DNA of 64,000 nt from Candidatus Omnitrophota bacterium (GCA_043806135.1 JAZDHG010000098.1:1660-65659); one strand, 5' to 3'. Shown: positions 5,801 through 42,005, counted from the stretch's first letter. The notes: generated by a model from the sequence alone, not told the origin. Made by a program: numbers and translations.

Positions 5801-8800
5801 GGAAAGATAAAGTTGAGCATTACTGTCTTGCGCGGAAAACGCCTGAGTAATGCTTTTAAACAAAGACAGGAATTAAGTAAGGATGACGCGACCCTTAATG
5901 TTTATAGAAAGGTTATTTATAATTTGGTTGATAACCTTATCGATGAGGAACAACCTGTAGACATAGCATCAATTTTATTTTCTTTATATGGAGATAAGAT
6001 CAGCGCGCAGACCTTAGAGATGCAGAAGTCAGCGCTTCTTGAAAAGATGAGCGAGGACGATGTTAAAGCGATCATTGTTGATCTGCTTACCACGCACTGG
6101 ACATATTTTATTAACGGCCTTGAAACAATAAGTAAAACCCGCGGTTTATCAGATCAGCTTTCCGGAAAAGATGAAAAAGTCAACCGCGCTTTATATGAGA
6201 AGAAAACATCTGAGATATTCGATGAGATGCTATCAGACCTGAAGGAAAATGTATTTGCGGCATTGTTGATGCCGTTCATGTCGGAAAACGACAGGGCTGC
6301 TCTTAACAGCGAAGCAGAAGAGACTATAGCACTTGAAAAAGAAGGAGCAAGTATTTTTGATAAACTTGATCCTGAGGAGATAGCGCAAAGGATCAAAAAA
6401 GGGCTGAACATCACAGTAAAAGAAAAGGTGCCGAGTATTGCCGAGCGGTTCAGTAAATGGGTTTTTGGTGAGGAACGCGGAACTACAGCCTTATTAAGTT
6501 CTGTGCTTGCCAAAGGATTTTATGCGTTTATTACAATAGCAGGAATTTTTGGCGGGGTAATTACTCCTGCTAAAACTGAAGCTTCGATTATACCTTCTGA
6601 TGAAGGGTTAACTGTAAAAGTACAGGAAACAAAAGCAGAATTTTCCTTGAATGATAAGAGAAAAACACAGATACTGGCGGAAATTTCTTTTGCGAAGATA
6701 GCTCAGCTTGTCGACTTAAAACTTCGGTCTTCTGAGTTTCAGGAAAAATATACCGGCCGTCCAAAAGAGCAGTTACAAAGCCTGGCTTACGATGAAGTTA
6801 TCCGCGATATTATCAAAAAGTCAGAACTTGGCCAGGATGTGCTGGCTTCATTAAATGATATAAAGGAAGTTGAGCTTGAATCTATTCCTGTTGTGCAGAG
6901 AGCACAATCAGATGTTTTATCCGGTATTGTGGCTGATACGACGTTACAACAGGTTGTAAAAAAATTCCGTATTCCGGTAAAGACACCCTACCGAACAAAT
7001 CTAATGAGCGAGTTCGAAGCAATCCGTGACCAAGGACGGCGAATACATCAAGGTTTTGATTTCCTTGTACAGGCAGGTACGGATATCTATCCGGCAATGC
7101 CGGGAAAAGTAATTTTTTCAGGAGCACTTAACGGTTACGGGAACATGGTGCTGTTGGAGCATGAAGTTGCGGACAGCACAACAGGACTAGTAAATTATTT
7201 TTACACTCTATACGGGCATAATGAGTCGAATCTGGTTAAGGCCGGGGACTATATCGGAGTTGATACTGTGATCGCTAAAGCAGGAGTTACAGGCAACGCG
7301 TCATCAGCTACCGGCGGCTGCCTGCATTTTGAAATCAAACAAACCACGCAAAAAGTCACCAACTATGCTAAATACCTGAATTTGGCAGCTCTTGATCCAG
7401 AGGTTGTGTTAGGGAAAAATTTATATTTGCCTGCCGATATTAACAAACGCGAGCCGATTCTTGTTGCATCAGCAGATCCAAACATGCCTTTGTTCGCAGC
7501 GGATAGGCGGGAAAAGACAAAACAGCCAAAACCTGTTGAAGCGCGAACTCAGACAAGAAGTATTATCGGAGGCCAGATCAGGCATGAGGTAGCACCAGGG
7601 CAAACGCTTAGCATGATCGCTGAAAAATTCTTTGTTAACGGTACTTCCGGGGAAAAAATCAGAGAATTTTATAATAAACAGCATCCGGAAGCTCCTATGA
7701 AAAATTTGATGCTCCTTACCGGAAAGACACTTGTCCTGGATATAGACGAGGAGATAGCATCTTTATTAAGGCCGGAAGATAAAGACATATCAATACAAAG
7801 ACCTGATTCGGAGTTTTCTAATATAACAGAAAATATTCGAATAAGAGAGCAGGGAATAGAGGGGATAGTCAACTTGCCAGTGCGCCTTAAGGGTGGAAAA
7901 ACATCCTTTGAATTTGATGAACGCACGAAGTTTATGGCTTTGCGCGGTGAAAATAAAGACAAAAAAAATCCGGGAGTTGATTTTGTCTTAAAAGAAGAAA
8001 CGCCTGTATATGCTGCAGCTCCAGGAGAGGTTTTCTTTGTAGGTAAAGCAGAAGCATACGGCAATCTTGTTATTATTCATCATACTGTTAAGGATCAAAG
8101 GGAAAATATAAATCATTTTTACTCTCTGTATGCGCACAATAAGAGCAATAATGTAAAAGTAGGACAGTTGGTAGATGCGACAACTCAGATTTCTGTTGCC
8201 GGCAAAACAGGCAAACCGCCAATAAGTGATGCAGATGCTGTGCTTCATTTTGAAATCAGGCGCGGGATAGAAAAACTTGAAAATCATCAGGAATATCTAC
8301 ATGATGCTTCCTACAGTGCTCTTTATCCCGGAATTGCTCTGAAAACTCAGGTGTTAAATCCTGAATTGTTTTTCAATAAGACATTTGACTCAGGCCTTAA
8401 AGCAGGAAGGCTGATTGTTCCACAAAATGAATATAAGCCTTTATCTGCTCGAAATATTGAGCAAGATAAAGTAATATCCCGTCAGGATCTTGAGTATAGA
8501 ATTGCCCAAAGTATGAGAAATAGAAATTTAAACATTATCCCTGAAGGATTGATGAACGCGATTGTATATCAGCAGCTGGCTAAGGAGTTTGGAGTTGAGT
8601 TTTATCAGCCTGAGGCGGGTCTAAAGGGTGATGATTATTTTGAAAAACTTATGAAGGCGGTTCGTGCAAAGCATGGAGAAGATGTTCTTATTGTTGAAGG
8701 GCATTTTAATTCAGTACCAGAAATGATGTTCTTTTTTAAAGAAAACGGGATTCAATATATCTCTAAAGTTAAGCACGGTGAAGTAAAACAAAAAAAACAT

Positions 8801-11800
8801 GAATACCCAGATGTATCTGCAATGATTAAAGAATATGCTGTTGTTGCTGAATTCGGGTCTGCAGAATTGTTTTGCTCCTTACAACAGGAAGATTACCAGC
8901 GATATAAAATGGAATTCAAGAAAATGCTACAGCTGTATATCGATAATCATCCTGAGTGTAAAGGGAAGAAGATTGTTTTTATCCCCGGGCATGGAGGAGC
9001 AAATTATAAGACATCCTATTATATAGGGCCACAAGGACATTCTACAGGAGCTAATATTTCCAGATCAATTGTTAAAAGTACATTAGCTGAATATGATAAA
9101 TATACGCAGGATCTGCTGACTGCGGCTTTGGAAAAGGAGCATCAATTACCAAAGGTTGTGCAAGAAATAACTAGAACTGAGTTAGCGGTTATGGATTCAA
9201 GGTTAGAGCCTGTTGCAGGACAGGAAGGTATTGTAATTAGGGATTTAGCGCCAATTCCGGTTATATCAAAAGAAAAGGTTATTACTCCTAACGAAAAAAT
9301 AATCAAGCAGCCGGTTGCGCCGAAAACTCCGGAACCTACAGCAGGTGAATTCCAAAAGAAAAAATGGGAATATACAGTTAAACACGGTGATACATTGTCT
9401 GGAATTGCAAAAAAGTTGTTAGGCAGAGCTGATCTTTGGGAAAAACTTCGGGAGGATTATAACAAACAGCATCCGCAAAGACAGATACAGATAACTACTA
9501 ATGAAAATACGGGAATTATTAATGCGCTGATATATGCTGGTGAAAAATTAACTCTTGATATTGACCGGGATATTGCCGCATTGATTACGCCCCAGGCGCG
9601 GGAAAATCTGGGCATAGTTCTCAGTGCCGGCGGCCCGCCACCGTTAGCGCCTTTACCACCGCAAGAGAAACCTGAAATTACTGCGCCCCTGGCGGTCCCT
9701 GCTTATGTTGCAGCTGATGACAAGAAACAACTTGATAAAGAAAAGGTTGCTGTTCGTGCCGCAGAATTAATGGAAAAGGCGAAAAGTAAACAAGGTGAGG
9801 AGATATACTATCCGGAAAATCCTACTCCTGAGCGCAATTATGAACGCGGCATAGCCAAGGCGATCATACAGGTCATGATCAATAATAAGGACGGGGGGCA
9901 TTTTGCGGTTGCGGAAAACCCTGCTTTACAAGGTGAACTAAAAGATCTTGGTAATCTGCATTTTTATTTTCGTGATACAGGTAAAGAAATCAATGCCCGT
10001 GATAAGAGATTGTATGAACTTATTCAAAAAGATATAGCAGACAAGACAACTAAAGCAGCAGATATTGAGATATGGATCGGCAAAAAAGGAACCCCGGGTG
10101 CAAAGCCTTATATCCCTACGATAAAAGATGATCTTACTAAAAAAGAAAAACAGCTTGTATTTGATTCCTTGCTTGATATCAGTAATGTACAGCATTTACT
10201 GCATTTTTATAAATTCCCTACTCAGCTTGAAAAAAGAGACGAATTTGGCAGAGGACAGGAATTCACAAGCCCTACTGAAATCCGTGAGCATCAGGAGAAG
10301 GGATTTCCATTTGATATCTGGATTGAAAAAAGAGATACTCAGGAAAAACTCATCAGAATTTTCGGGCCTCAGAGTAAAGATTGGCAGCAATTTGTCAAAC
10401 CACCTGACCCAACAGATAAAGACCGGACATATATACAGTTTAAACCTGACTTCCTTGATTTGGTAAATAAATCCAGTGTTGTAAATAAAAAAGAATTAAT
10501 ACGGTTGTGGGAGGATTCCGAACGTACCGGTGATTATGCCTATCGCTTGCATTTTGGGTCAGTTGCGGCGAGTAAGACTCTTGAAGGTGTAAACAGTTAT
10601 GCTCTAGCTAGAGCTCTGCAGCTTGAAGTTGCCGATAAGATATTAAGCAATTTGGATATAGAAGCGCAACAGGGATTAATAAATAGGGCTAATTCTGAAG
10701 GCATTGTTTCTTTAGGTCCTAATGTTCCTGTAAAAGGAGTTGCCGGGCAGATACCGGAAAATCCAATGATGAAGAAAAGCCCTTATATAGGAGCTATTGT
10801 CGTTCAGAGAGAAGGCAACCCGGTAAAGGTAAATACATATTTTCAAAGCGAAAACCTTAATCAGAACTATGCTGAAGAACTGAAATTACCTAGGTTGGAA
10901 AAGACAGGTTTTGATATTGTTTACTATTTTTACAAGGATTCTCAAGGTAACATACAGCATAGGCGGATGCATTTCTTATCTTATAACCGTCAGGGAAAGC
11001 TGGTGGAGGTTAATGCCCGCTCTGCTCACGATATTATAGTTCTAGAAACTGACAAAAAGGCAGAGGAAAACGGGGATTGGTCAAAAAGCGATGTTCTATG
11101 GTTTGGCAAGAACGCAACCAATAAAGAAATCCTTAATGTATCTATCGGCACCCTGATGCATCAGATCGCTGTTGAAAACGCGCATAAGACCGCTAAACAG
11201 TTAAAGCGAAGGATGGTTTTTGAAGCCGTACTTCTTCCGATCAATGTTCTCGGCGGGTACGGGGTAGGCGGTATTGTATCAAAGTTGTCACAGCCATGGG
11301 CGCAGGCAGGGATACGTTTAATATATGATATGCTTTTTACTGCCTGGGAACTGCCGACAGGCGCGAAGATGCAAGGCCCGCCCAGTAAGGATACGGTTGA
11401 GACCTTTATTTCAAGTTATTTGTTCTTTACACAAGGCCCCGGAAAAAACAGGGAACAAAAAGGGCTGGAATTTATCACGACAGAAGATAAAAGCGGAAAT
11501 TTAACTATTACTGATGAAGAGTTTCGTACTTATGTTGAAAACCAGAAAAAAGATACAAAATCACCTCTTAACCTCTGGCTTACTATGGCCATGGATGATG
11601 AGGCCAGTAAAGGGTTTGTTAAATATGTGCAAGGGCAGAGAAAATTTGCTATTGCCATGTTCAGTATCGGGATTCTGGATAACCTGGCGCGTTTAAATAC
11701 AGAAAGCTATAATACACCGGGTAATGCGTTCAAAGATATTCTTGCCAGCCGGTATTTCAGTTTAACCGGAGAAGTAAATGTGTTGGCAGTAATCGGCGCG

Positions 11801-14800
11801 ATTGCCGGAAACGATGTACTTGGCGCCGGAGTGCATATGGGAGCTTTCCGCGAGGGATGGGGGAATTTCTGGGAGAATTATTTAAACTTCTTCGGTGTTA
11901 CAGTTGATGCTAAAGCTGTTATTAATACATTGAGTACTTTATTTACTAAAGACGGGAGTAAGGTATTTGAATATACTCCTGAAGTTCCGCAGAGACGTGC
12001 TTTTAGCCTTTACTTCCTTGGGTTCCCGATCATGACGTATTTTGACCTTAAAAACACAGAAGGTTTTATTAACTCTTCAACCTCGTTTGCTTTTGAAATG
12101 GAAAGCAGTAAGAATCCGTTTAATAAAAAATGGTGGAAAGATAAGGTTACCCAATACACAGAAGATGAATTTAAGCAGCTGAAACTGGTTCCGCTTGGCA
12201 AGGTAAAAGCAGAAGGTGAAAACGGACAGCCGATATGGAGAGTTTATTATATCAATGCTGATACCGGCGGGATTGTCTTCTTAGGTGATAAAGGGTACAA
12301 AAGCAAACTCCAGAGGTTAAAAGACGATGTGCAGCTTTTTGATAGATTTATGTCTTTAATCGGCGAAGGCGGCGGACGCATAGAAAAGAAAAGCTATGAC
12401 GCCGGTGCTGTAGTTGAAATAAAAAGAACAACACCATCTCAGCAGCAATCTTCACAACAGCCAATTCCGGATCTAACCGGGAAGATGCTTTCTTTTGCGC
12501 TTAATGTTAGACATCCTTTGACCGGAGTTTCTCCAAGCCATGTTTATGATACAAAGGCCACAGCCAACAATATTAACTGGGCTTTTACTTATGATATGGC
12601 TTTACAGTCTTTAGGGTTTTCCGCAGGGGGGTTGTCCAAAGAGTCGGATGCTTTACTTGATTATTTTGTTCAAAACCGTTGGTTATACCGTTATGAGGAA
12701 AAAGGTAAGTTTAACGGCGGAGTATATAATGCGATAGATATATCTCAACTTCCTACCGACACACAAAAACCCATTGCTGATTTTAGAAATGATGCAGGAA
12801 ACAGCAACTGGGTAGCAGCTGCGCTTATAAAGGGTGCAATGCGCCATGTTAGTGATCCTAATGCATGGCAGGCGGTTCTTGATGAGCAAAGAGAAGACAG
12901 GCAAAAGGCTTCGGCTAATTTCATTAAAACCGGAGATATTAATAAAATTTTTGAAGGCCGCGGGGAAACGCAGTGGCGCTTTTTAGGACTGCGTACTACC
13001 AAGCTAAAAGTTTTTCTTGAATCACTTGATGTGAAAGGAAAACAATATCTTTCTCAGGCAGAAAAAATTGCTGAGTCCCTGATAAGTTTGCAGGATAAAG
13101 ACGGCGGGATCCGTCACGGGCCGACAGAACTTAATATAAAATCAACAGAAGAAAATATAAACGCGTTTGGATTATTTATGATGCTTCATGATGTTACCGG
13201 AGAGAGCAAGTATAAAGACGCGGCTAAAAAAATCCTACAATGGCTGCCAAAAGTTTATGATACAACTCAAGGAATGTTTTTGCGCGGAATGCAAAATAAA
13301 TCAAAAGAGGATCAACCTGCTAAATGGGAAGTTGATCATATTTACGCAACAGATGCTAATGCTTTAGCAATAATCGTAATCGGACCGCAAATATTGGACA
13401 AATTAAAATCTAAAAATGAATATATTTCAGCGGATAAAATTATGGGATCGCTTGCGGACAGAAAGGTAGAACTGCTAACTGAAAGTGGAGACAAAATTTT
13501 AGGCTATGACTATACAGATAAAGTAGGCAGAGGAGACAGGGATGCTGTTATCTCACCGGAAATGACCGCTCATGTGGTTAAAGCGCATAAAGTAATGTCC
13601 AGATATTATGCTGAGCAGGGTGAAGATCTGATTGCAGATATTCATGCAAAACAGGCAGAATCCTTACTTACTAGTATTCAGCAATTAGCCGTTAACTCTT
13701 TACTTGGGATATCATTCCCTGACAGTACTCTGCCTAAAGATGCAATAGGCGGACAGATAAAAAGATATCATGACAGCAACTTTAATACTGTATCTTTAGC
13801 CAGCTTAAATTCTCTTTGGATAGTATTGGCCAAGGAAGATGTAAATCCTTTTGATGTACGCGCAAATGATCAAGTCCCTCTTATGCCTGTTTCAATAAGC
13901 GAGGAAAAAGGTTTTAATGCGGAGATAATAAAGCAGAAAACAACTATCCAGACTCTTTTGATTCGAAAACAGAATGATCCAAAATCTTGGACAGATAATG
14001 ATGAACTTGAATTGAACCAGTCCATTGAAAAGATAAATGAAATGATCCGTGAATATACAAAGGGTGCAATATTCACGGCCACAGAAGAAGATGAAACAAC
14101 ACTTAAAAGGATAATAGAACTTTTAAGTAACAAAGCCAAAGGCATACAATTAACTGATGCTGAAATAAAAGAACTGGAACAAAAGAAAGCGTCTCATCCC
14201 TATTATGAAGGGTGGATACGTCTTAGCGCGCTTTCTGAAAAAAAATTTATAATGAGTAAGTTTGAACAGATAAAACAGCTTCTAACTAAAAAAGCAAAGG
14301 AGATGCAGCTTAAGGAGTTAGGGCAAGAGTTGGATAGACAAACGGGTGTTGAAGAAAAGAAGCGTTTGCAAGAAGAGATCCAGAAACTTAAAGATAAAAT
14401 AGCTATTAGCGAGGAGTTAAAAGATCAAAAGTTTGTAGTATTAATCAATGAAACTATAGATGGCTACTTCGGTAAAGGAGAAGAAAAATCCGTAGAAAGA
14501 GAATCAACAAGAAATAGATTTTTTGGTAAACTTTCTAATACCCCAGCTGAAGATGTTGTTGTAGGTCTGATAGAAAAATTGTATGGCAAAAACAGGCTTC
14601 TCAGTGAAGATATTTTTAAGGGTGTTTATCAGTATTTCAATGCTGAAGATAACAGCGTGGTCACCGTTACCTTAATCGCTCCTGCACAGGCTATTGAAGT
14701 TGAAAGAATAAAAAGAGAAAAAGAACAGGAAACAGCAGCGAAACAGTATAAATTACTTGATGAAGGCGGAGTTATTATTACTGATAAATCAACGGGAAGA

Positions 14801-17800
14801 CTTATAGAGATAAGAGTTGGAGACAAACAAAAGGGAGTTGATGTATTAGGAGATTTTCTGGGTAGGATAAAGAATATGGTGGCTGCTGATGAAATCAATG
14901 CTGCTCAGATGCAGAAGATTATGCGCGATAGATGGGTTTTTACAATTCCAAAAACAAGTTCACAGGCTGTTGATATAAATGGGCAGAAGCAAGATCAAGA
15001 TATAACTGTTACTTTGGTTTTCCCGTATCATAGCGAATATGTGAGGGAAGAGACAAATTTAAGAACCGGAGAATCTGAACTTCGTATTTTTAATTACGGA
15101 TTACTTGATCGTGTAATTACCCGCGATAAGATTACAGTAATGAAATATAATGATCTTGATGTTGAAATTTCAAGCGATGTCTATGTGAATGAAACCGGCG
15201 AGATTATAAAAGATGCAAAGGAAGGAAGCTACTTACAGAAAACAGAAACTGTAGCTTTTGATACAAAGGATGTTGATCCTGTTTCTAAAGCGGTGAGCCC
15301 GGTGGTTATCAAAAAAGTCACAGACCCTGCTTCCCATGCGGTTAAATATGAAGTGTATAAGGATTATGAATTGCCGGTCATGACCTTTAGCGAAAAATAT
15401 GTTACGATTATTGAATTTGATGAATGGGGCAGAGAAAAAACAAGCAGAACTTATGTTAATACCGGATCGCTGGATAAACCGCGCTGGGGCAAACAACCTG
15501 TGCTTAGTTCAGAAGTTTTACCGCTTGTGGGTGAATTGGACGTAAAGGGCCGTCCGGCTACCTGGGATAAGAATTCAAAATGGTCAAGCAAGCTGGTAAT
15601 TGATCATGAAAGGAATAAACATTTTGTTGAAGTAAGGGATCAATACGGACGTCTTATCAAAAAGTATGACGGAAAAATGGAAGAAAAGCCAGGTGCCGAG
15701 CAGAACAAACTGCAGGTAATTCCTTACGGAGCGAATCAACCTTTTGAAATAGATGCCAGAGACCCGCAAGGCAGGCGCTTTGTAGTTGAGAAAGAAACAT
15801 CATTTTATCATAAATATGAGGAGCGCTTTGCTGCTCTTGGTGTTGATGCGTCTGTTATGAACCTATTAGGACTGCAGGGCACGGCTATGGTTGGGGAAAC
15901 TTATCTTTATGAGTTTAACCCGAAAACCGGACAAGGTAAAAGGGTAAGTGAAGATCCTGTCGGCAGGTCTGTGGCTCAAGTGCAGCGGCCTCAAAAAACA
16001 GGCATAGAAAAATACTTTGATGATCAAGGTAATGTTTTACTGCAGATGTCCGCACCAAGACAAAAACTTGTCTGGCAGCAGGTGATTGACAACCAGGGAA
16101 GAAAAGTTACGGATTATTATGGTTATTTGGTCGATGCTCAGGGTAGAAGAGTAACGGATATCTCAAAATATAAAGGTGATATTGATAAACTGAGATTTGT
16201 CAGGGAAAAGGTCTCTTACTCGATATATACGATAGGACAATTAAATGTTTTAAGAAAACAATACCCGAAACTCTACGATGAACTTAAAACAGAGCTCAAA
16301 AATTTGAATGTGGATATAGAATCAGAGCAATTCTTAAAAGATCTAATCTCTCAGGGGAAAATTGATGTTGCCTTAATGGGAGTAACATTTTCCTATGATG
16401 ATAAGACAAAAGCCCCTATTGAACTGGCAGCATTTTCCACAGTGCAGAAAAATGAGAAAAACAAATATATAAGTGACGGCGGAGAAGTTTTAGTTATCAG
16501 CAAAGATACACAGAAAAAGGAAGCTACTCAGCAGATAATCGATAGCGAGGGAAGAATTAAACTCAAGTACAACGGGAGATTTGACAGCAAAGCAAAACGT
16601 TTTATCAGGGAAAAGATAACCAAGTTTTTCTATACATATGAGGATCGTTTTGCCGGTGAATATTTCATTAATCCTGAGTTTGCCCGTGATATGAAAATCC
16701 TTGGCCTTTACGGCGTGGCCATGGTTGGAGAAACATTTACTTATGACGATACAACAGGCCGGCAGAGCAAAGAGCCTATTGCGTATTCTTTCTTGAGAAC
16801 ATTTAAAGACGGCAATTATGTTGACAATGAGGGTAATATCCTTGTTCAGATGACTAATGCCAACCAGCATATGAGCCGCCAGGATGTTATTAATAATCAG
16901 GGGCATACAATTATCCGGTATCTAGGAAAACTAATTGACCCCGAGACAAAGGAATTTGAAAAAGCCCAGTCATCGCGTTTTTTCTACAGCACGCAGCAGC
17001 TTGAGGAATTCAGCCAGAACGAGAAAACAAAAGGGCTTTATACTCAACTGATCAAAGAGTACGCGGCATTAGGCTGGGATATAGAAAGTCCTGCATTTAA
17101 AGCAGATCTTAATCGATATGGTAAATTCGGTGTTGCCCTTATCGGAGCAACCTATATCTATGATCAGGAGAATGATAAAGAAGTTGCTTTAATGTCTGTA
17201 TCTCGTATTAAGAAAAATGAACAAGGTGCACATATTGATGCTCAGGGTAATGTTCTTGTTGAGATGAAGAATATCATTAACAACCTGCATTGGCAGGAGT
17301 TAATTGACAATTCAGGCCGGATACAGGTTAAATATGACGGTGTTGTAATAGATGGCCAGTTTATTAGAAATCAAAAGACTTATTATTTTTATGATTACGC
17401 CAGTTATGATGCCTACCGCAAGGCACATCCTGAACTTAAGGCTGAGCTTGATGCATGGGAAGAAAAACTGACAAAACTTAAGAAAGTTAATGTTCAGGGA
17501 ATAATGGATGAACTTGGCCGCCGCAATATCGCTTTGTTTGGATTTACTTACCTTTATGATGAAGCGAATGCTGTAGCAGAAGATGTCATTAAAGAGTTGG
17601 GTTTGAATTCAGATAATAAAGAGCTTCTAAATGATATAAAAAATGAAGTATTTGCTATTGCCCAACCTGATAAGCAAAAGTCTCAGCTGGCTGTCAAAAA
17701 ATTAACTGAATTATTGGGTTCCAAATATAATTTTATAATTACAGATCAAAAGCTTGAGGGTATTGTAAAGGATAGCAGACTTAAATTAGCTGCATCTACT

Positions 17801-20800
17801 AAATATTCGCAAGTTGCTGATACAGAGGCTCTTGCTTTTTCATCTTTGAATGTAATGCAGGGAGACGGAACTGATGTTAAGGATTATTTCAGTGAAAAAG
17901 AGGGTGAAAAAGGCAATATATCGGTACAAAATGTTCGCCTAAAACAGCAGCTTACCTGGGAGGAAATAAAGGACAATTTCGGCCGTCCGGTCAAGGTATA
18001 TGACTATCAGCTTGGCAAGGACAAGAAATATCATCCCATAAAAGTCTCAAACTATTACTATGTCTATCAGGATAGGTTCAGCAAATTAGGTGTAACTGAG
18101 AGAGCAATGAATGAGATGGGCAGGCTTGGATTTGCCATGGTAGGTGAAACTTATCTGCTTAAACGAGACTCAAAAGAAGCGTTGGTATCTGTGTCTGTAA
18201 TGGTACCGCATAAAAACACAACGGGAAGTAAGTTCAACGATTATTTTAATAAAAGAGGCGAAATGATCATCGAGCTTGATAATCAGAGAACGCATCTTGT
18301 CTGGAGGGAAGTGAAGGACGCTCACGGACGCGTTCTTGTGTCCATAGACGGCAATAAAGAGAACGGTATCTTCAAGCCTCAGAAAGCAACAAGATTTTAT
18401 TATGATTTTGAAAAAAGAGTATTTGATTCTATTGCTACTAAGATGGAAAAAGACTGGGCAAAACTTGGCATAACAAAAGATAAGATGGGTGTTGAGATGC
18501 TCAATGCTATGTCGCGCCTGGGTAAATTTGATATAGCTACTTTAGGCAGTACTTATTTATATGATGGCCGTTATGAATACGGCATTAATCCTGATCTTGA
18601 TCAGCTGAATGAGAGTGAAAACAGACTGTTAGCTGTATCAATATTGGGAAAATTTGAAAAAAATGAATACGAAAAAAATGTTCCGGCTGGAGAAACAGAT
18701 TATATCAATGATGCCGGATATGTTAAAGCCATGATCTATGATGCCAAGACCAAGCTGCTTTGGGTAGGGCTTAAGGATAATAAAGGTGATATACGCGTTA
18801 AATATGCCGGTTATGAATACATGAACCCTCAGACAAAGCAGGATGAATTTAAATGGGTATGGGTTTCCAGAATAAATTATAATTGGCCTGATGAACTGGA
18901 AAACCTTGGCGCTTTAGGTATTGCTTATGATTCCAAGACATATTTTTATTATGACCCTCCTGCAGGGAAAAAGATAGAACGAGTTGATTTTCATAAGCTT
19001 GCTCCTGAAATCACGGAACTCGTGATTAGAAACGGGAAAAATGATCTGGAGGATATTTTAAAGAAGAAACTGGCTCCTTATGTGCAGGGTAAACATCACG
19101 CAAGAAAAATAATCAAAGAGATACAGGATCTTCCAAAAATCGATGATAATCAGGCAAAGAGCAATGCGATCATGGATATACTTGTCAAATATTTCTCTCA
19201 TAATATTAATTATGAATTCGGTGAAGGTGATTATCTGGTTACTGAATCCCAGATAGTACCTTTTAATTATGACCCCAATGATCCTAAAAAGAAATTAGAA
19301 TTTATAGATAAAAAAGGCAATGTTATCTTCCATATGCATCAGGTAAAAAGAAATCTTGATTATCAGGAAGTAAAAGATAATAAAGGCAGAATAATTATCC
19401 TGTTTGACGGTGATTTGGAGCCGGGGAAGAAGTTTGATTTAAGATATCAGGTATTTAACCGGAATATAATGTCTTTTTCCTATTTTGAAGATAATGATCT
19501 TGATGCAGTTGGGATTTCAAACAGAGGAGAAGCTTTCTTCTCCCGTACAAATGAAGAAACCCTGCAGGGGCTGTCTTTAACGACATTGGAAAAGGCAAAG
19601 GCTGCTTTCAGGGTATACAGAGGGACTTTAAGAGGTGACCAGCTTCTGAAATTTGATCAGGCAGTAAAGAAAGCCGGCGGTGAAGATGCTGTGGCGGCTA
19701 AGTTTCATAAAGCGGTTTTAACCATTCTCAAGTCAAATTACAGCGAGCCTAAAAATATACTTCGATTTATATCTCCTGCAGATATTGCGGAAAATATTTT
19801 TATACAGAGAAATAGTTATAATCTTGATGATTTTCTGGAAATGCATCTTGCCGGTATGTGCAGCGGATTGTTTGAAGATAAAGTCAGCAGATCATGGCTT
19901 GTAGAGATTGACAAAGAATTCTTCTGGGATACAAGCAGTGAACAAAACAAAAAGAAATGGCTTACAAGAAACGGAAATGATAAATCTGCGGCAAAAGAAG
20001 CATTGTTTAAATATATGAAATGGGATAGGCTTACTAACGATGTAAAACAACAATGGCTTGCAAGATACGAAAATAATGAAGCTCGGGCAAAGGAAGCTTT
20101 TTATAAAGATAATCTTACTTCTATAGACAGGTACATCAATGCTGAAGGAAGCATACAATACGAAGGAGAGGAGCACTGGAGATCAGACATTACCAAAGAC
20201 GGCCGGCCTATGAGCACAAAAGCAGATGTGCATTACCGCAAGATAAAAGATAAGCTCGGGCGGGTTATGAATCATATCTGGGGGTACTGGGATAAGCAAA
20301 GCGATTTTCGGGGCATAATGCAGCTTAGGGCCAGATTCGACACCTTATACGGTAAATTCGGTATTGCTGATGTTACAACTGCTTTTTTAACGGAACAGGG
20401 ATGGACATTGTTTAACTACTCAAAAGCGGTCAATCTTGAATACGAGACAGGTGCTGTAGACTATGCGGTTGTTAAAACCCTTGTTCCTGAGGACAAAAAA
20501 GAGGCGTTGAAGATGGATGAATCAAGAGCTGCTCCGCTTGAGAAGAAGTTTGAAGATTCATGGGTATTATTCCGTTTACCGAAGCCGCGTGCGGAATTAA
20601 TACGTGAATTAATAAACATAAGGCCAAGTACGGCGCAAGGAGATATAGCAGATAAAATCATTGATAAGATGATCAAAGATAAATATTACAAAGAAGGCTT
20701 TACAGACGAAGAAGATGTTGTTGCTTTTTTTGAAAAAGAAGGTATTAAGCTGGATTTTAAAACAGATAGTGAGTTTATTTCTAGGCTTTACAGAGGATTG

Positions 20801-23800
20801 CAGCACCGCACCGCAACAATCGCTGTCGCGCCGAAAGGCGATGCCGCTGAGCGTCCGAAAGTAATTCAGATGTGGATGGAAATAAAGAACAAAAAGGGAG
20901 AGCTTGAAATAATATTCAACGGCTATGTTGACCGCATTTCTGAAGCAGGTAAAAAAGGACAGATAAAGCAGATAGAGCTTGAAAAAACATATGTTACTTT
21001 TCTTGAATATCTGGAAAAGAAAAATATGGGTTTATCGCAAAGAAGTTCGACTTTTGATTTTAACCCAAATTTCATGAAAAACGGCCAGTCTACGGAAAAG
21101 ATGCTTAAGCAGTTTAAAGCAAAAATCTCCCTGCGTGCCTCTACAGACCAGCTGATATTACTGCCTGATGGGACGATGGTCTATGACATGAAAGATACGA
21201 GCAAAGATAAGCTGGCGCTGGTAAGAACTCTTTATTATCCGGACGGAAGAATTAAATTCCAGATATCCAAGAAAATGATGGGTGAAGACCCGCGCTGGAG
21301 AATTGATGTTTTTGATGAGCGCCAGAACCTGGTAGCAACACTGCGCGATGATACATCGCGTACGCCTGAAGAGGTGATTAGCAACCTCGGTAATATTGAA
21401 AACTGGCGGCCTTATGAGATACATCACTCTGTACATACTGAATATGCGCATACATTTGTGCTTACAGATATGGTAGGAGAGACCGGCATTTCCACATTTG
21501 CAGGACAGAAAGCGCTGCTGTTAAGCAACGGCAAGCCTTTGATTAAAGGTACAAATATCCATCAAAATATCGGACTATCGCAAAAAGAGCATTTTTCAGA
21601 TAAAGCGGTGCCTTACGAAGAAACAAAATATATTAATCGCCAGTTATGGTGGCTTTATTTTGATAAATTCCAAAATAATTTTATTAATCAGGTGGGTAAT
21701 ATTGGAAAACACCAGTTGGAGCGTTTTAATATCAAGCTGACCAGTGAGCGGTTTAGAGATGAACAATTGTTTGCGGATTTGCTGCAGGAGGCAAACGCGC
21801 AAAAAGCTAAGGATGATATTCAGCAGGGGGCCGCGGTTAAAGTAAGCTATTTGAAAGACGGACAGATGCAGGAAGTGGAGATCGCGCCGCGCGGATTAGG
21901 GTTTAAAATTAAAAAGATTTTTGACTATAAAATTCAGGTGCCTTTTACCGGATGGTATGTATTCTGGTGGACAATGCCGCTGGCTTTAGGAATTTATCTC
22001 TTAGGCGCAAACCGCATTACAAGCTGGTGGTGGGGAAGAAAAGCGCGCAAAGCAAAGGAAAAAGGCAGGAATAATATCAACCGCATGTGCGAAGATGAAA
22101 TAAAGGATCTCCTGCTGCCTGATAAGAAAAATGCGAAAGAGCTGGAAAAAACTGATGCCGTGAATATAGCAAGTCAAATTGTAGATCGCAGAAGGCGAGT
22201 AAAGAGCTTTATGGATGAAGCTGAAGTAGAAGAGTTCTTAGGTAAATTAGGTGTAACTGCTGAAACTATATCCAGGATCATGGATAATATTGTAGTTGCA
22301 GATATTATTCCCGACTTCTATAATGACGCGAATTTAAGATTGCAGCAAGTTAACAGGATGAATGAACAGGAACTGGCCAAATTACTGATGCAGGCAGGAG
22401 TTGAGAAAGAAACAGCGCTGAATGCATCCGAAGCCTTTGTCAAAGAACTGGCAGATAAAAAACCATTTATCAAAGCACTTGGTCAAAACGGATTTGAAAC
22501 TCTGGATCAGGTTAAGGCATTTTTAAGAGACCATGGCATTGCGTATAAGATTTTGAATACTATCTTCGGCTCAGGCGATCTTTTACGCGCACCGCCGCGT
22601 TCAGCGCAGTCAAGGCAGCAGGTAATCGATGAACTGCAGGAAATCCTTGCTGCTGCGGATATTAGCTTGGATGAATTAAACAAAGTATTAAGTGAAAAAC
22701 TCCCTGATCCAAAAGATTCTTTTGACTCTACCCTTACCCCGCCGATCGCGTTAATCGTGAAAAACCTTCTGGATGAAGAAGGCCTTGGTTTATTAACAAG
22801 AGAGCAATTTAAAGAAGTAATTAACGAGCTTATCGAAAAACTGCGTAATAACAAAAGAATCCCTTCTGCTATTGACTACTATGTCATAGAAGAATGCATA
22901 GACAAGGCCTTTAGTCCGATAGTAAAGCAGTATTTAATGGATTTAGACCCTAATAATGAACTTGAAGGTGAATACGAGCGGTTGATAAAAATGCGCTTAA
23001 GTGAAGTTCTTTCTGTAATGATAAAAAATCCTTATGGCATAAGAAAAAAAGAAAGTGGCACATACAAAGGAGAATATGAAATAGAAGAACCTGAAATGAT
23101 AGGATTGGATAAAGATAATGCTCTTAAAAAAGAAGCATTTGATGGAGAACCTGCTCCGTTTACATTGCGCTTTCAGGCATGGCAAAGTGTTTTCTTGCTG
23201 CCATATTATCCTTATAAGTTAGGATCAGCCTTGGCATCGCGTTCTACTTTAACCCGCTATTTGTTCCGTAAATCATTTGCTTTATATATGGATAAAAGAG
23301 CTAATGAGATATTACCTTTAATGAGATTACATGTTCAATTATGGAGAGCCATTATAGTTGATCAGATACAGGGCAAGCTGGAGCCTTATCGTAGAAATAA
23401 TATAGGGATAAATGAAAGGCTTATCGATGACCCTACGATATTATTTGGACAAGAAGATATGGACGATTTGTTCCGTTATTATGAAGACCCTATAAATGAA
23501 CTTAATATTAATTTAAGTCAGGAAGTCGGTAATATCAAAAATCAGCCTGATGAGAAAACTGCTTCTGATTATATACAGAAGCTTGTTGATAGCAAGCTTA
23601 AACCTGCTGTAGACAAAGCGTTAAACGAACACGAATCATTTATTGGTACTTACAGATTAGGCTGGCTGGCTTTCTGGCATGAACTCATGACTCCTTTTAG
23701 AGCGCTGTATAGCAAATGGACCGGTAAAGAACAGCGTTTTTGGACTGAAGGTACGGAAAAAGGGCCGGCAGGGTTAAAAAGCAAAAAAGGCAAACGTTTC

Positions 23801-26800
23801 TGGCAACAGACTATGATAGTTACGGCATTTTTCAATTTTATTATGGGATATATTGTGATCGAATATGCCATCGCCTGGGGTATTGCCTTAGGATTTCCTT
23901 TAGGGCTTGTGTTTATATTCTCAGTGCTGCCGTTCCTGATTTTCATGCCGCTGACATATTTTTCCATTAAGGAAATGGGTGTGACATTTGTATCCTGGTT
24001 GACGGAAAGAAGGCAAAAAATAGCTCCTATAAACAACTGGGTTTGGGGCTGGAGCCGGTCACGACTTAAAAACCATCTTGATAAGATATTCATAGATACA
24101 AATGGTGAGCTTAAAATAGAAGATTATTCCGGTAAAACCAGAGTTCAGGTATGGAATGAAGGAGTTGAACATTTATTTGAAATCGCAAAGATTTCTGAGA
24201 CTGAACGCAATGACTATTTGTTTGGGCTTGAGGATATGATTAATGCTGCTTCAGTGAGAAGCAAATTGAATAGAATGAAGCTTGCTAAGCCAAAGAATAA
24301 AGAAGCTAGGCAGCGTTTACGCAGATGGATTGCCGGATATTTGCGTTATAAACCCGGCATAGAAGGTTTTGAACGTTTGCCTACATTCAGCATTTTTATT
24401 CTTAACGGCGGTGGAGATGAAGCGTATTATTTCTTTGCTGATGATTTGCTTAAGCGAAGAGTTGAAAAAGGTGTAATAGAAGATACTACGCATTTGCAGT
24501 ATCTCAAAAACCGGTATGATGATGAGTTTGATAATTTGATGCATTTAATAGATACAAAATGGAACGTATTAAAGAGTTTATTAGATAAAAATGATGCAAA
24601 AGTTATCAGCGAATTTGTTGAGAGTATTCGGGATTTGAGTTTTGGCCAGGAAATTGATGTTACGCAAATTAGAGCAAAACTTACAGACCAAGAGTCCATT
24701 AATGAATTTGACAGCCTGGTTGAGATGATTGAGGATTGGGCAAATTACAGATTGTCTACAACCTGGCGCTGGACACAGTCTCATAAGTATATGAGACAAA
24801 GATATTATGAATATATTGAGAATTATTATCAGAATGAATTATTTAAAATTCTGAAAATGGAAAGAGATGGGAAAGAGTTAACAGAAGAAGAAGCAAAAAC
24901 GATTGCCGGAATGACGCAGGATCAGAAAGTGGAATATTATGAGAAAATTGCTGCTGAATATACCCGCCTGGTTGACTTAAAATATCAGTTTATCAACTCT
25001 GAGAGTGCTACTAAAGCGCAGAATAACCCTAATTTCCTGAGAATTAATTTTGATACAATGACAGAAGAAGATCTTAAGAGCTTGGATATCGGCAATGCAA
25101 AGCAGAAAAGGATCCTGATTGATTATAAAAAGTATAAAGCGGAATATATAAAATATTATATGCCAAGTAAACCTGATGGAAAGCAGATCAATCCGAATAT
25201 TATAGGTAAGCAAGGTGATCAAATCCGTTTTTCAAAATACGGCCAGGCAAGTTTTTCATCTCCTTATGTGCGCGGTGAGATTGTCTGGGGTATGGATACG
25301 CATCTTGAAATAGATTACGAAGAGACCCCCAATATGCTCCGCACACTTACAGAGTTTAATAGAAATCCAAAACTGGGTGTTGTTTTAAGCACTATTACAA
25401 TTTTTGTTGAAAAGTTAAATGCTATCGGTCGGGCTATGGCACTTGCTGAGCAGGCATGGCAGAGCTCAGTAATGAGAGCTAAAGAAACAGTGGATGTTCT
25501 TGGCTATTATGGAAAGGGAATTTACCGCAATGATTTCATGAATAAATATGAAGGGTTGCAGGATGATTATGTATCTGAAGATATTGTTACTGCTTTTATG
25601 TTTATGCTTTTTGGTTTGATGACTAAGCATGTCAGCTATCTGAAACTGCAATGGAGAATGCCGCCGCCGCTTAAAAGTATTATTGTTCCGCTTGCCAAGT
25701 GGGCAGCTGGAAGCGTGGAATTTCTCTTAAGACGCCAGTTCAAGCGTGTGCTTGCAAGCAGAATAATTCCATGGAATGAAAAATTTGGGACGATGGTTTC
25801 AGCGGCGCATTACTGGAAAAAACCGTTTGTAATCCTAGGGGTTATATCTTTTACAGTAGTTGGTCTTATCATGACCGGGCTTTTAATGCCGGTTAACCCG
25901 TTCTTGTCATTATCGTTTCCTCTTTTCTGGATTGTTATGGGTGCATTCTTTGCCGAGGCAATAAACTTGCCGTCCTTTTGGTCTCATTCAGAAAGGGAAG
26001 GAAGTTACTTGAAGGGTGTTGGGGCAACATTATGGGGCATTGCAACGAACTTTGTATTTTTTAATATGCTTATACCGTTATATGTTATTAAAGGCATAAA
26101 CGAAGGCGTCTGGGCGCGTCCGGTATTTTTGCCCACAGATAAAGAGCTCAAACTTGAAAAGCCGTTAAAAGCTACTTATGAATATTTCCGAAAAGAATTC
26201 GGCAGCTGGCCGGCCAAAATAGCAGCGGTATTACTGCCGATTACAATGCTTGTGGTTCCGGTAACTGTGATGCTTTTAGGCACATGGTTCCTGTATTTCT
26301 TTGCTTTGGGTGCCTGGGTATTCAGTCCGTATATATTGAGCTTTGCTATCAGAAGCAAGATACTTACAGTTTTCAATAAATACATAAAGGAAAAATTTGC
26401 TAAAAAGGCTATAGATCAAAAGAGAAAGAGCTTTGCACAGGTTTGGACGGAAAACTTCAGACAGGATATGTTTGATCAGAATATTTTCAGAGGAGTGTTC
26501 TCAGGTATAGGTAATCTTTATATCAGACCTGCTTGGAGAGGAATACATGAACGCTTATTTAAAAAAGGCAGTTGGTTTGATAGACACTTTTATGTTGTCC
26601 CTTCGACTATTCTTAGCTTAGTAGCTTCCGGGCATATTATTGCTATGCTGTGTGCACCGGCAATCTCAGTTTTAACAACTCCGTTTATTATATTGTTTCT
26701 CCTGTATTTCCCGTTGCGTTTACTTTTTACTCCAAAATATGATGAAACAACCTTTACACTTAAAGAGCAGTGGAAAGAAGCTGGTATAAATTTTAAACCT

Positions 26801-29800
26801 GCTGATTGGTCCAAAGCACAGGATGCAGGAGCAAGGCCGGCTCGTTATATAATTGAAGCTTTAGCTATTCTTTTATATTTTCCATTTAGCGGTTGGATGG
26901 CAGCAGCTTTTGGTATTACAGCAGTTGTAGAGATTGCGATAGCTAAATTCATTCCGTCGCCGATGTACGGGCCGGATTTAAGATCAAGATTATTCCGCTA
27001 TATTGGATGGGGATCTTTGCTGTTATCCGGGTCATTCTTACCTTTAACCGGAGCCGTATCTATAGGATTTTACGCTCTGGTGATGTTGGCTATTACTGCA
27101 GAAATTTTCTGGGCAATATTTAATAAAAAACCATTATTTTCTTTGATCAGAAGCAAGGAACTAAAAAGTCCAGGGACAGAAGCTACTTTTCAAAAAGGTG
27201 AAGATTTCGATTCAAGAGCAAGTCAAACACAACGCGATACTATAGCTGGCTACACGAGAGAGAAAATAAGATACTATCGTGGTCTTAAATGGGGTGATAG
27301 CCTGGTTGATATTGATAATATCAGTACAGAAGTGCTGGATAAAATATTTGCTTCTGTTGAAATAAGAGCCCTATATGATGCAAATAAAGAAAAGTTAAGA
27401 AATATACGCAGGAACAATACTGAATACGAGAGCCTTAAAGAAACAATATGGGCTGGTATTTCAGCGCAGGAGCAGGAACTTTGGCTGACTGATAACAACA
27501 ACGATGAAAATCAGGCAAAGCAAGCGCTATATGAATATATGCAGGCATATGACCAGCATATATTGAAAAGTATGAAATATGAGGCAGAGGAGATAGTTCT
27601 GCCTGCTGTTTTAAATAGCCTGACTTCAGACATGAGGGCAATCAGAAGAATTAAGGCAGGGGTAACAAGCGGAGAGCTTGAGCAGCAGGTTTTAGATAGC
27701 AAAGCAGCTGACTTAAGAGAAAAATTTTGGAACGCTTTACCAGTTGAAATACAGCAATATCTGCTGTTTACAAATAATTTTGACAGGGAAGCTGTTTTAG
27801 ATCAGCTAATGAAAAAGCTTGAAGAAGTTACTAACGATAAAATTAAAGCTGATTTTAATAGAATCAAGGACTATATTGTTCCTCAAATAGTAGGACGCTA
27901 CAAACGACAGTTGATTGATGTTATAACTGGCAGGGTAGAGAAAAACAGCATTTTAAATTTTTATTATGTGGATAGTCTAATGAATATTCTTGATGAGATA
28001 ACAAGTTATGACAAGCAAGCATCAATTGATTTGTTGTTTGGATTGCTTTTGAGAGGGTTGCATAATTCATTAATTCCGGATATTAAACCCAAAGTCATAA
28101 TTGAAAAATTAATAGATAAGGGGTTAGATGAAGGACAGCTTGCTAAGATCAATTGGCTTACCGAGGTGTTGAGTAATGAAGAGATTGTCAATTTTGTAAG
28201 ATTGAACAGAACTAGTATTAGAATGGCTAAGTATGATAATGATTTAATACGAGAAATTGAATTGACCAGAGAATTGCTGGATTTGGTTGAAGGTATTAAT
28301 CCGGATGTTTTAAATAAGCTTAAGAGTATTTTTGAATCAGATGAGGAAGCACAAGCTTATCTATTCACAAGCTTGGATATAATAATTATCAAAGGAGCAA
28401 TTAAAAACATAAATGAATTCAATAATTTAAAAGAGAATGAAACAAGCAAACAATTATTCAATGAATTTGTATCTTCAAACTGGCAATATTTCTTAAGTGC
28501 TCATTTTTCAAATGACAATAATGCTGAGAAGTATTTAAAAGCTGCTTCCTGGGATATGTTGCCTTTAGATATAAAGGAAGCATATCTAGATATTGCTAAA
28601 GGTGATTTAGAATTAGCAAAAAAACTAGCTGTTGAAGGAAAAGGATGCAGTTACGCTACAGTATTAGGAACAGCTAAAGATAAAATTAAAAAAATATCGG
28701 AGGGATTGAAATCAATTAATAATGAAGAAAGAGATGATTTGCTGCGCTGGTTATCATCTGTTGGCGGAATTCAGGAAGTACAGACTGTTGAATCAGCATG
28801 GCTTCTCCAAAGGATAATAATAATGCTCGATGCAAATAAAGATAATTTTAAGGGTTTATTTAATGCAGATGATTTAAACATATTTATAATTGAGTTAATT
28901 ATTGCTAGCTCTGGAATTACTTCAAGAAGGTCCGAAATTGAGCAGGAATTGAGATTAGTTGTTAACACTTATTTAGCAATTCTTAATGAGGGGCTTGATA
29001 TAGATGCGTATATATTAAGCAAAGATGAACAGGGTCTTAAGAATAAATTGGTGAATACAGCGATTTTCTTATTTGGTAAAGTACTTGATGATTATCTTAA
29101 TTTCGAGAAATTGGCCTCTAATTATGGGCAGATAACTAATGAAATTAAAGAAGCATATCTTAATCAGCTTTATGCGGATTACGGGTTGACCGGTGTTGAG
29201 CCTATGCCGGTATGGATGTCTGAAATTGCGCGTGCACTTAAAAACCATATTTTAGACAGGCCATATCCTACATTTGATGGTTTTGTAAAGGAAATCTTTG
29301 ATGCTTTAAAAGCGAAATTACCCAATGATTCAGGTAAGCCTGGCGCACCGGTCACTTCTGCAGATTCGCCTGATAATCCAAATGCTCCTGCCCCTGGTAC
29401 AGGTACAGAAGTTGTTTATCAGGAAAGTACAGCGGATACTGGTACAACAGGAGCAGAATCTAAAGTTGAAGAGATTATTGACTTAACACCTGAGATGATG
29501 GTTAGACCTGAAGAGGATAAAATTATTGACCTTGTAGATGTTGTTGAAGAACGTGAATTACCGGTTCCGGATAAGGGAGACATAACTGAAGAGGAAGCTC
29601 TTGAAGGGGATGTTGATTTAGTTGCGTATAGGAAATCATTAGAAGAACCTGACCAGGCTGTTATGGATGCTTTAGATGAAATCCTTATTAATGAGCCGAT
29701 GGCTGAAGAACCTGATCTGGATGCTGCTGTAAATATAATGGAAACATATCTTATGGAGATAGAACGTCAATTAGGCGAAGAAACGCGTAATGGATTTAGA

Positions 29801-30283
29801 GACTTTGTGGAGGAGTTTGGCTTTGGTGATTTAATAAAAACGCAAACAGAGCAGATTGTGAGATTATTGCTTATACTCTATATGGTTAGTAAAGAAGTAA
29901 CGATTAATATATTTGATTTACCCGATGATCCGGCTGGTTTTATAAATGCCATGGAACATCTCAATATTAATTATAAAGCGATTGAAGATGAGATTATTAA
30001 CACTGATTTGAATGTTAAGGCAAAACTTGAAAGCGGGCAATCAGTAGGACTCTTTAATGGTTTATTAGAGATAAGGGTTAATGAAAGAGGTCAAGATAAG
30101 GTTTTGGTATTAACAGTTTCAGAGTCTGCTGACAAAGAAAAGATCATTGACTTAACACCGGAGATGATCATTAAGCCTGAAGCTCAAAAGGCTACTGAAG
30201 ACGCTTTAGATAAGGCAATACCCGGAATTGAGAAAAAATTAACGCTTGAAGATACCAGAGAGCTTATTGGTAATGCAATTTAG
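2894..30283 (+). CDS. giant multidomain protein (9129 aa): signal-like leader; embedded SecA-like ATPase motor; two M23 peptidase-like and two LysM-like modules; ~9 tandem repeats; polytopic membrane domain
   Basis: Uninterrupted 27.4-kb ORF. A good RBS (AGGTGA) sits 5 nt before the ATG at 2903, which is the likely true start; the GTG at 2894 is in frame. The SecA hallmarks span nt ~3830-5950. They include [110 protein letters not shown]...[76 protein letters not shown] and an HSD-like [25 protein letters not shown]. M23 motifs: HQGFD...CLHFE (7046-7345) and NPGVD...VLHFE (7966-8265). LysM-like segments lie at 7577-7745 and 9370-9566. TM helices lie at 21950-22020, 23800-24010 and 25806-27130. 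Confidence 0.85.
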   Translation: [9129 protein letters not shown]

Positions 30284-31048: not shown

Positions 31049-31687
31049 ATGCCTATAAGAGCGGACGTGGTTAGCGGAAGAATGTATCATGTTTTTACGA
31101 AAAGCATCGCCGGATTTATTGTTTTTAATAATGATGCTGAGTATGACAGGATGATCTATGCATTAAACTATTATAAGATCATGGGAATTGGCTACTGCTA
31201 TTCAGACTATATCAAACATGTTTATAAAACTGATTTATTGAAAGATAAAGATCAAACAGTAGATATTATCGCATATTGTTTAATGCCCACACATTTACAT
31301 TTTATTCTCAAACAAAATGTCGATAAAGGCATATCACTCTTTATGAGAAAGGTTCTCAATAGTTATTCTAAATATTTTAATTGCAAAATTAAAAGAAAAG
31401 GCCCTTTGTGGGAAAGTAGATTTAAAAATGTTAAGATAGAGAATGATGAACAGTTAATGCATTTAACCCGATATGTGCACTTAAATCCTGTTACCGCAAA
31501 CTTGGTAAAAAAACCAAATTTTTGGAAATATTCTTCATATAATGAATATCTGAACAAGACAAAAGAAAAAATATGCAACTATGGCGAGGTTTTGGATATT
31601 GATCCAGGGGAATATAAAGAATTTGTTGGGTCCCAAATAGATCATCAAAAAGAATTAGCGCATATCAAGCATTTAATCCTTAAATAA
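31049..31687 (+). CDS. REP-associated tyrosine transposase (RAYT) / IS200-like Y1 (HUH) transposase
   Basis: HUH motif in CLMPTHLHFIL. Conserved GPLWESRF (compare G-x-LWQ-RF of Y1 transposases). Catalytic Tyr context RYVHLNPV followed by ...WKYSSY. RBS AAAGGAG upstream. Flanked by REP-like hairpins. Confidence 0.8.
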   Translation: MPIRADVVSGRMYHVFTKSIAGFIVFNNDAEYDRMIYALNYYKIMGIGYCYSDYIKHVYKTDLLKDKDQTVDIIAYCLMPTHLHFILKQNVDKGISLFMRKVLNSYSKYFNCKIKRKGPLWESRFKNVKIENDEQLMHLTRYVHLNPVTANLVKKPNFWKYSSYNEYLNKTKEKICNYGEVLDIDPGEYKEFVGSQIDHQKELAHIKHLILK

Positions 31688-41160: not shown

Positions 41161-41171
41161 AAGAGGCCGCA

Positions 41172-41950: not shown

Positions 41951-42005
41951 TAATAAAATTATTTTACGAAAACGTGCAAACTCGATAACGTGAAAGGAAT
42001 ATGTC

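Follow-up and report, generated by a model that had tools for sequence, protein, structure and literature searches.

The DNA considered here is a stretch of 64,000 nucleotides from Candidatus Omnitrophota bacterium (GCA_043806135.1, JAZDHG010000098.1:1660-65659), referred to at its full length as the window. It carries on the plus strand a giant open reading frame (ORF; 2894..30283) of 9129 amino acids (aa), whose translation runs without internal stops, and entirely within this ORF lies an array of nine tandem units (aa 4232-5562, nt 15587-19579). The repeat itself, its conservation in related genomes, and its predicted fold, with a local geometry like that of the YD hairpins of Rhs-type shells, are the main subject of this work.

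The repeat units

A phmmer search of the whole protein with one unit (aa 4626-4765) brings up the other copies, and iteration by jackhmmer over the window's proteins settles on nine units, whose domain E-values range from 1e-16 to 1e-65. Unit envelopes were taken from a hidden Markov model (HMM) of the nine-unit alignment, designated A1, and give unit lengths of 104-150 aa at a spacing of 117-218 aa. A preliminary description, made from the sequence, had placed about nine divergent tandem repeats at 15600-19560, in good agreement with these boundaries. The example strings it quoted are all present in the translation (aa ~4240-5560), and its unit size of ~110-130 aa is roughly right, if slightly narrow. 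The three ordered conserved elements that it proposed are also borne out: element 2 (W-x-x-V-x-D-N-x-G-R-x-V-x-x-Y-D-G) is recognizable in all nine units, element 1 (D-x-x-G-N-V-L-V-x-M) in eight, with unit 1 beginning after it, and element 3 (M-V-G-E-T-Y-x-Y-D) is clear in seven of the nine and degenerate in units 8 and 9. No cysteine occurs in the array.

All units are encoded on the plus strand. Unit 1 (15587..15934, aa 4232-4347; jackhmmer E 4e-27, HMM envelope) is short at its N-terminus. Unit 2 (15971..16420, aa 4360-4509) has an insert of three helices and an extra D-x-x-G-R hairpin (VIDNQGRKVTDYYGYLVDAQGRRVTD); the internal duplication of this hairpin, seen at 15965-16423, shows that a unit can acquire individual hairpins. 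Unit 3 (16424..16768, aa 4511-4625) is modeled by AlphaFold2 (AF2) with six strands and two helices at a predicted local distance difference test score (pLDDT) of 90, and units 4 (16775..17185, aa 4628-4764) and 5 (17189..17578, aa 4766-4895) with six strands and three helices each. Next comes a poorly conserved linker (17579..17842, aa 4896-4983), which is helical or of low confidence, followed by unit 6 (17843..18184, aa 4984-5097), unit 7 (18200..18586, aa 5103-5231) and unit 8 (18659..18970, aa 5256-5359), all three recovered by jackhmmer, HMM and AF2. Unit 9 (19259..19579, aa 5456-5562; jackhmmer and HMM) lies behind an insert of ~96 aa that follows unit 8. Two weak, degenerate and tentative copies, number 10 (20126..20386, aa 5745-5831; VHYRKIKDKLGRVMNHIWGYW; domain E 2e-3) and number 11 (20870..21091, aa 5993-6066; IQMWMEIKNKKGELEIIFNGY; domain E 1e-2), come up only in a family-wide jackhmmer search, with the profile enlarged by homologues; the motif is visible in both.

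Periodicity beyond chance, as anticipated in the preliminary description, is evident from self-comparison. Unit 4 scores 40.4, 16.4, 29.4, 20.9, and 8.3 bits against units 2, 3, 5, 7, and 9, respectively, compared with a maximum of 5.0 bits among 200 residue shuffles of the region. In a windowed self-comparison the remaining units are tied in via other units (E 1e-8 to 1e-19), and no other extended repeat family is seen in the 9129 aa. Pairwise identity between units is 20-32% and Tandem Repeats Finder reports no tandem repeat at the DNA level, so the duplication must be old. An internal sub-period of ~23 residues, which stems from the D-N-x-G turn alone, scores 8.2 against a column-shuffle null with a mean of 5.0 and a maximum of 8.3; this is marginal and we do not claim it.

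Relatives of the unit and conservation of the array

An exhaustive search of 1.84 billion (1.84e9) representative proteins with the unit profile (E ≤ 1e-3) gave 31 matches, ~27 of which are real. The other four (P0016, P0019, P0027, and P0029) are unrelated repetitive proteins and give no significant match in the family-wide search. Most of the real members are giant (1500-7100 aa) or are pieces of giant proteins, with 2-16 units each; where the source label names a taxon, this is mostly Candidatus Omnitrophota or Omnitrophica. In full-length members, several hundred to ~1300 residues separate the array from the next predicted hydrophobic segment downstream.

Among genomes sampled at one per GTDB species, six loci encode the whole 1324 aa array with a best-segment identity of 42-56%. 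Five of these are labeled as metagenome-assembled genomes (MAGs) of Candidatus Omnitrophota and one as Planctomycetia, and in each the orthologous ORF spans the entire locus of 14-24 kb. Exactly nine units are found in all six orthologues. The linkers are less uniform, measuring 5-259 aa at the junction of units 5 and 6 and ~84 to ~182 aa at that of units 8 and 9. An alignment of the window with five orthologues (A3; one of the six loci, L006, equals another, L005, in every unit coordinate) gives an identity of 70% in the predicted strands, 50% in the helices and 24% in the linker between units 5 and 6. Despite the existence of orthologues at 42-56% identity, a word-indexed search with the 1324 aa region, or with a profile of the six orthologues, returns only one Logan fragment that is 100% identical (P0001).

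Several family members deserve separate mention. In the Logan short-read contig of 5450 bp that holds the one exact match from the word-indexed search (L001, SRR27925880), the giant gene has been split into several gene calls of 38 to 1072 aa, which illustrates how giant genes become fragmented in short-read assemblies. Protein P0005 (6497 aa, MFH1282160.1), a distant member, carries ~14 units at aa ~1317-2841 that follow each other very regularly, with a period of ~107-125 aa, or 16 units when two weak copies at aa 868-1020 are counted; by eye, it has an extra hairpin (IGDSILFDRYGNIVEDI) in place of the long helical insert. Protein P0018 has, ~130-160 residues before its array, a Pfam RHS_repeat match at aa 110-138 that exceeds the gathering score (E 4.6e-5). 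This hints at an evolutionary link from canonical YD repeats to the unit and would be compatible with descent, while not amounting to proof. Apart from that match, Pfam gave nothing informative for P0010, P0015, P0018, P0021, P0022, P0023, and P0031, nor did the gene neighborhood of P0012.

Predicted fold and possible role

Structure prediction for two to three units, proposed in the preliminary description as a check, gives a confident fold: the AF2 model of units 3-5 (387 aa, from a 24-row alignment) has a mean pLDDT of 90.3 and a predicted template modeling score (pTM) of 0.87. Extended to units 1-8 (1128 aa, 12 rows), the model reaches a pLDDT of 78.6 and a pTM of 0.79, and its sole sizeable stretch of low confidence (pLDDT < 50, model residues 660-761) is the linker between units 5 and 6. 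The secondary structure pattern E-E-E-E-E-H-H(-H)-E occurs three times in the model of units 3-5. A pattern of about six strands with helix is found in every unit of the longer model, where seven of the eight units have inserts of two to three helices. In the models each unit has six antiparallel strands, with the helical insert between strands 5 and 6, and strand 6 continues into strand 1 of the next unit.

When the conserved motifs are mapped onto the model, element 1 corresponds to a D-x-x-G turn and strand 2, element 2 to strand 3, the D-N-x-G-R turn and strand 4, and element 3 to strand 6, which ends in Y-x-Y-D. Signatures of the D-x-x-G type occur ~3 times per unit; together with the six strands, this is a plausible explanation for the long period. 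The high pTM over 387 and 1128 residues suggests that the units are held in a fixed relative arrangement and not as beads on a string, and the models are consistent with one continuous curved sheet running through successive units. The alternate strand faces differ in mean Kyte-Doolittle (KD) hydropathy (+1.1 and -0.8), a measure biased by the way in which the faces were chosen.

None of the curated libraries recognizes the array. The array and each unit gave only noise against Pfam at E ≤ 10, without RHS_repeat (PF05593), and four single units and the whole 1324 aa array likewise gave only noise, without TIGR01643 (YD_repeat_2x), against NCBIfam at the same threshold; the whole giant ORF has no Rhs/YD match at E ≤ 0.01 (Pfam) or E ≤ 0.1 (NCBIfam). 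The regular expressions Y.YD..G[RNKQ], YD..G[RNKQ][LIVM], and G..RY.YD find nothing in the 9129 aa. The giant ORF contains no P....DP.G, no Rhs core cleavage motif is found near the array, and the sole match to DP.G[LWF] falls 3450 residues beyond the array, at aa 9012. The picture changes when structures are compared. In a Foldseek search with the eight-unit model, the first 22 ranks are taken exclusively by YD-shell proteins (Rhs cores of the type VI secretion system (T6SS), Tse15, TcB-TcC, teneurins, and SGS1), with E-values from 2.7e-15 to 1e-9 over more than 1200 aligned columns, and with TM-scores of just 0.09-0.14 in the same list; OspA variants come next (1e-5). Against the sequences in the Protein Data Bank (PDB), a 42-sequence family profile matches significantly only engineered OspA hairpin repeats (E 1.3e-4 to 3e-4); a T6SS Rhs protein of solved structure is at E 0.41.

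The resemblance to YD/Rhs repeats noted in the preliminary description thus stands for structure, with all of the top 22 Foldseek matches being YD shells, and fails for family membership, as RHS_repeat, TIGR01643, YxYDxxGR, and DPxGL are all missing. The units lie outside the described curated families, and in this sense the proposed new repeat class holds; the array has, on the other hand, likely been glimpsed in a preprint, which gave neither motif nor family definition (West-Roberts et al., 2023; bioRxiv 10.1101/2023.11.21.568195).

The remainder of the giant ORF bears on where the array might be located. Matches to Pfam and NCBIfam models are confined to the first third of the protein. A module with SecA DEAD, preprotein-binding (PPXD), and P-loop parts spans aa 302-896 (SecA_DEAD E 1.4e-69, Pfam), followed by two M23 peptidase domains (6980..8341, aa ~1363-1506 and ~1669-1816; Pfam PF01551 E 3.8e-37, and NCBIfam M23 families), which are also visible as an internal duplication in the windowed self-comparison. 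A LysM-like segment and a weak GH76-like match (aa ~3381-3486) are present as well; from aa ~3650 to the C-terminal end no Pfam or NCBIfam model is recognized. A hydropathy scan identifies 13 segments with a mean of at least 1.7 (KD), among them one at aa ~17, one at aa ~1205 and a cluster at aa ~6975-8075, with none between aa ~1205 and that cluster. The array and the M23 hydrolases consequently share a stretch of ~5700 residues in which no strongly hydrophobic segment occurs. At the N-terminus, the sequence resembles a signal peptide or anchor.

Taken together, we think it probable that the array, with its nine old unit copies and two eroded ones, forms a rigid, YD-like hairpin spiral with a stalk or scaffold role. 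Successive units would pack into one rigid body, not into separate beads, and the array would be a stiff, elongated, strongly curved and possibly hollow or tubular beta spiral, with the helices bracing one face of the sheet. It would reside outside the cytoplasm, together with the M23, LysM-like and GH76-like modules; we infer this because the M23 domains are in the same transmembrane-free stretch. The array could then serve as a stalk or scaffold between these modules and the membrane-embedded C-terminal part, holding or spacing the modules away from the membrane, towards the cell envelope or a host or prey cell. Adhesion or an extended fiber, as suggested in the preliminary description, would also be conceivable, and the high pTM favors a rigid, continuous body.

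A number of points weigh against this interpretation. The multiple sequence alignments behind both models (24 and 12 rows) are shallow, and the significance that Foldseek assigns to long, repetitive beta meanders may be overstated. A tube shape, a hollow interior and helices on one face of the sheet are proposals drawn from the models. The location is unsettled and forms the weakest step towards a stalk: by positive-inside logic, the signal-like N-terminus and the segment at aa 1205 would leave the SecA-like ATPase on the outside of the cell and the array on the inside, contrary to what the M23/LysM neighbors and the SecA-like domain suggest. The function is derived from context and from the predicted fold. 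Finally, the equivalence with the structure of West-Roberts et al. (2023) is based on matching descriptions, and not on sequence or coordinates.

It is also conceivable, though in our view unlikely, that the units are ligand-binding modules, each a LolA-like open half-barrel or a glycan-binding surface of 6-12 strands with helices, that together serve as a multivalent adhesin or a carrier of lipids or glycans, directed at host or prey envelopes. The envelope-degrading modules in the neighborhood would fit such a role, and prey adhesion has been argued for the giant proteins of Omnitrophota in general (West-Roberts et al., 2023). However, conservation peaks in the strands and not in the loops or helices, no conserved polar pocket residues were identified, and the high pTM across units suggests one continuous body. 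The difference in hydropathy between the strand faces, within the bias of that measure, likewise gives no sign of a second hydrophobic groove.

Less probable still is a true closed YD cocoon of the Rhs/Tc/teneurin type, enclosing a toxic or enzymatic domain of the same polypeptide that is released after autoproteolysis. The Foldseek ranking, the YD-like turn motifs in the unit and the RHS_repeat upstream of the array in P0018, a distant member, are in line with such a shell. Against it, the array of the window protein has neither RHS_repeat nor TIGR01643 at E ≤ 10, YxYDxxGR is lacking, and no DPxGL or PxxxxDPxG cleavage motif is found near the array. Moreover, every unit has a helical insert, which is foreign to YD shells, and the array is broken by variable linkers of 5-259 aa.

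The most far-reaching proposal, which we regard as very improbable, is that the array, the eroded copies and the flanking hairpins form a hollow, helix-braced beta tube that bridges the Omnitrophota cell to its host or prey. With the SecA-like ATPase and the membrane domain it would be a single-polypeptide conduit that exports lytic modules or imports digestion products; if true, YD-type hairpins would have given rise to a new kind of translocation nanotube. That the periodicity is a compositional or chance artifact of a beta-rich, low-GC giant ORF, as the unit identity of just 20-32% and a sub-period barely above its null might suggest, is refuted by unit-to-unit scores of up to 40 bits against at most 5 bits in the shuffles, by the recovery of nine units in iterative searches, by the retention of the same nine units in six other genomes, and by a single secondary structure pattern, predicted with high confidence in every unit.

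The giant proteins of Omnitrophota are mostly dark matter, and a blank of 1.3 thousand residues in one of them has now become a defined and searchable module, with unit boundaries, three motifs, a copy number of nine in six genomes and a high-confidence predicted fold. A profile of the unit would allow annotators to spot the "antiparallel beta-helix" in fragmentary giant genes from metagenomes. Fragments of two to three units fold confidently in silico, which makes them realistic targets for expression and structure determination, and their structure would bear on whether these ultra-small bacteria build rigid stalks or tubes for contact with other cells.

Locus context and comparison with known systems

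Downstream of the giant ORF, the window encodes an IS200-like ORF, two more large multi-domain ORFs, an MFS sugar transporter, GH2-like hydrolases, a PilZ protein and a pilin-like ORF. The IS200/Y1-transposase-like ORF (31049-31687; PF01797, E 1.6e-7) lies between the first and the second large gene. The second (32409-39938, 2509 aa) has N- and C-terminal carbamoyltransferase domains, a radical SAM/4Fe-4S domain and a weak LbH match; the third (42006-47975, 1989 aa) has a HEAT repeat match, along with matches to DUF218 and cupin that are weak and both below the Pfam cut-offs. Both resemble the multi-enzyme type of Omnitrophota long protein. The ~2 kb between them (39939-42005) contain no ORF of at least 150 aa on either strand, and overlap the 2 kb bin with the lowest GC content of the window (40001-42000; GC 0.316, with near-zero GC skew).

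Parts of the giant protein have counterparts elsewhere in the locus. A segment of ~55 residues at its N-terminus (aa 1-72, 2894-3110) is shared with aa 10-63 of the third large ORF (42006-42200; E 2.6e-6), resembles a signal peptide or anchor (MFNAGKKYNLAFRIISAFIIQSFLIMDIAFAAGGD), and may be a targeting sequence that the giant proteins encoded here have in common. The GH76-like region (aa ~3381-3653, 13034-13852) is paralogous, over aa 3383-3653, to aa ~389-648 of the ORF at 58067-60013 (E to 2.6e-11), which is a fusion of an N-terminal PilZ domain and a C-terminal glycosidase-like part. Within the giant protein, two pairs of short repeats (aa 5672-5709 and 8180-8217, E 3e-6; aa 8855-8879 and 9078-9102, E 1.3e-3) are unrelated to the main array. 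A membrane-proximal segment at ~25220-25972 (aa ~7443-7693) with the motif VSEDIVTAFMFMLFG is conserved with the distant family members P0011 (E 4e-23) and P0020 (E 3e-20), without a Pfam match at E ≤ 1 or a match among PDB sequences, and may be a second family-defining domain of unknown function. A tentative assignment of the membrane region of family members (motif ISEDIW... / VSEDIV...) to a GT48 glucan-synthase domain was rejected on the same two negative results.

With regard to known structures, the array shares with Rhs/YD shells a long run of antiparallel beta hairpins, turns of the D-x-x-G type and strands that end in Y-x-Y-D. In contrast to these shells, where the period is ~20 aa, that of the array is ~100-150 aa and comprises six strands; every unit has a helical insert where YD shells have none, and the sequence-model match, YxYDxxGR and core cleavage motif are lacking. 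In our reading, the local hairpin geometry of the models would be of the YD type, while the supercoil, the six-strand period and the helices would combine into a global shape that is found in no solved structure. The module is thus structurally tied to Rhs/Tc/teneurin hairpins, yet clearly set apart by a super-repeat of six strands, by helical inserts and by the absence of the core motifs.

The match to engineered OspA (PDB 3cka, 5ys7, 5z1o, and 8xwg) covers strands 2-4 of the unit, with F-N-E-K-G-E-L-S-A-K-Y of OspA aligned to Y-I-D-x-x-G-N-V-L-V. Unlike the array, these variants were engineered by duplicating one hairpin of a small lipoprotein, and they have neither helical inserts nor a six-strand super-repeat. 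The match is best described as an analogy in hairpin sequence and shape, and is no evidence of common descent. We also count LolA/LolB-like open half-barrels and DUF3836 among the closest known systems.

The closest parallel is found in the literature on Omnitrophota itself. West-Roberts et al. (2023) described AlphaFold-predicted "~1500 aa tubule-like structures" in giant proteins of this phylum (their Fig. 5A), an "antiparallel beta-helix with external paired alpha helices" in which a single chain of antiparallel beta sheet is regularly interspaced with alpha helices, and which the authors call novel but RHS-like. In their account most of the giant proteins have a divergent SecA DEAD domain, all have many transmembrane regions, and PilZ and carbohydrate uptake or hydrolase genes are located downstream of the giant genes; a sequence motif, unit definition, copy number or family distribution is not given. 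A survey of Omnitrophota long proteins from 2026 classifies repeats by Pfam only.

The array resembles this beta-helix in its source at the phylum level and in its setting: the giant ORF has a divergent SecA DEAD domain and numerous transmembrane segments, PilZ and carbohydrate genes follow downstream, and orthologues occur in Candidatus Omnitrophota MAGs. The sizes are also similar (~1500 aa for the published structures and 1331 aa here, or ~1835 aa with the two weak copies), and antiparallel strands with regular helices extend over more than 1000 aa in our models as well (1128 residues, pTM 0.79). The helices differ, being "paired" in the published structures and present as two to three in seven of the eight units modeled here. 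The array of P0005, with its extra hairpin, could correspond to the variant in Fig. 5B of the same preprint, which has external beta hairpins and not helices. On the strength of these matching descriptions, the array is apparently the sequence basis of the antiparallel beta-helix of West-Roberts et al. (2023); it is new to domain databases, and not wholly new to the literature.

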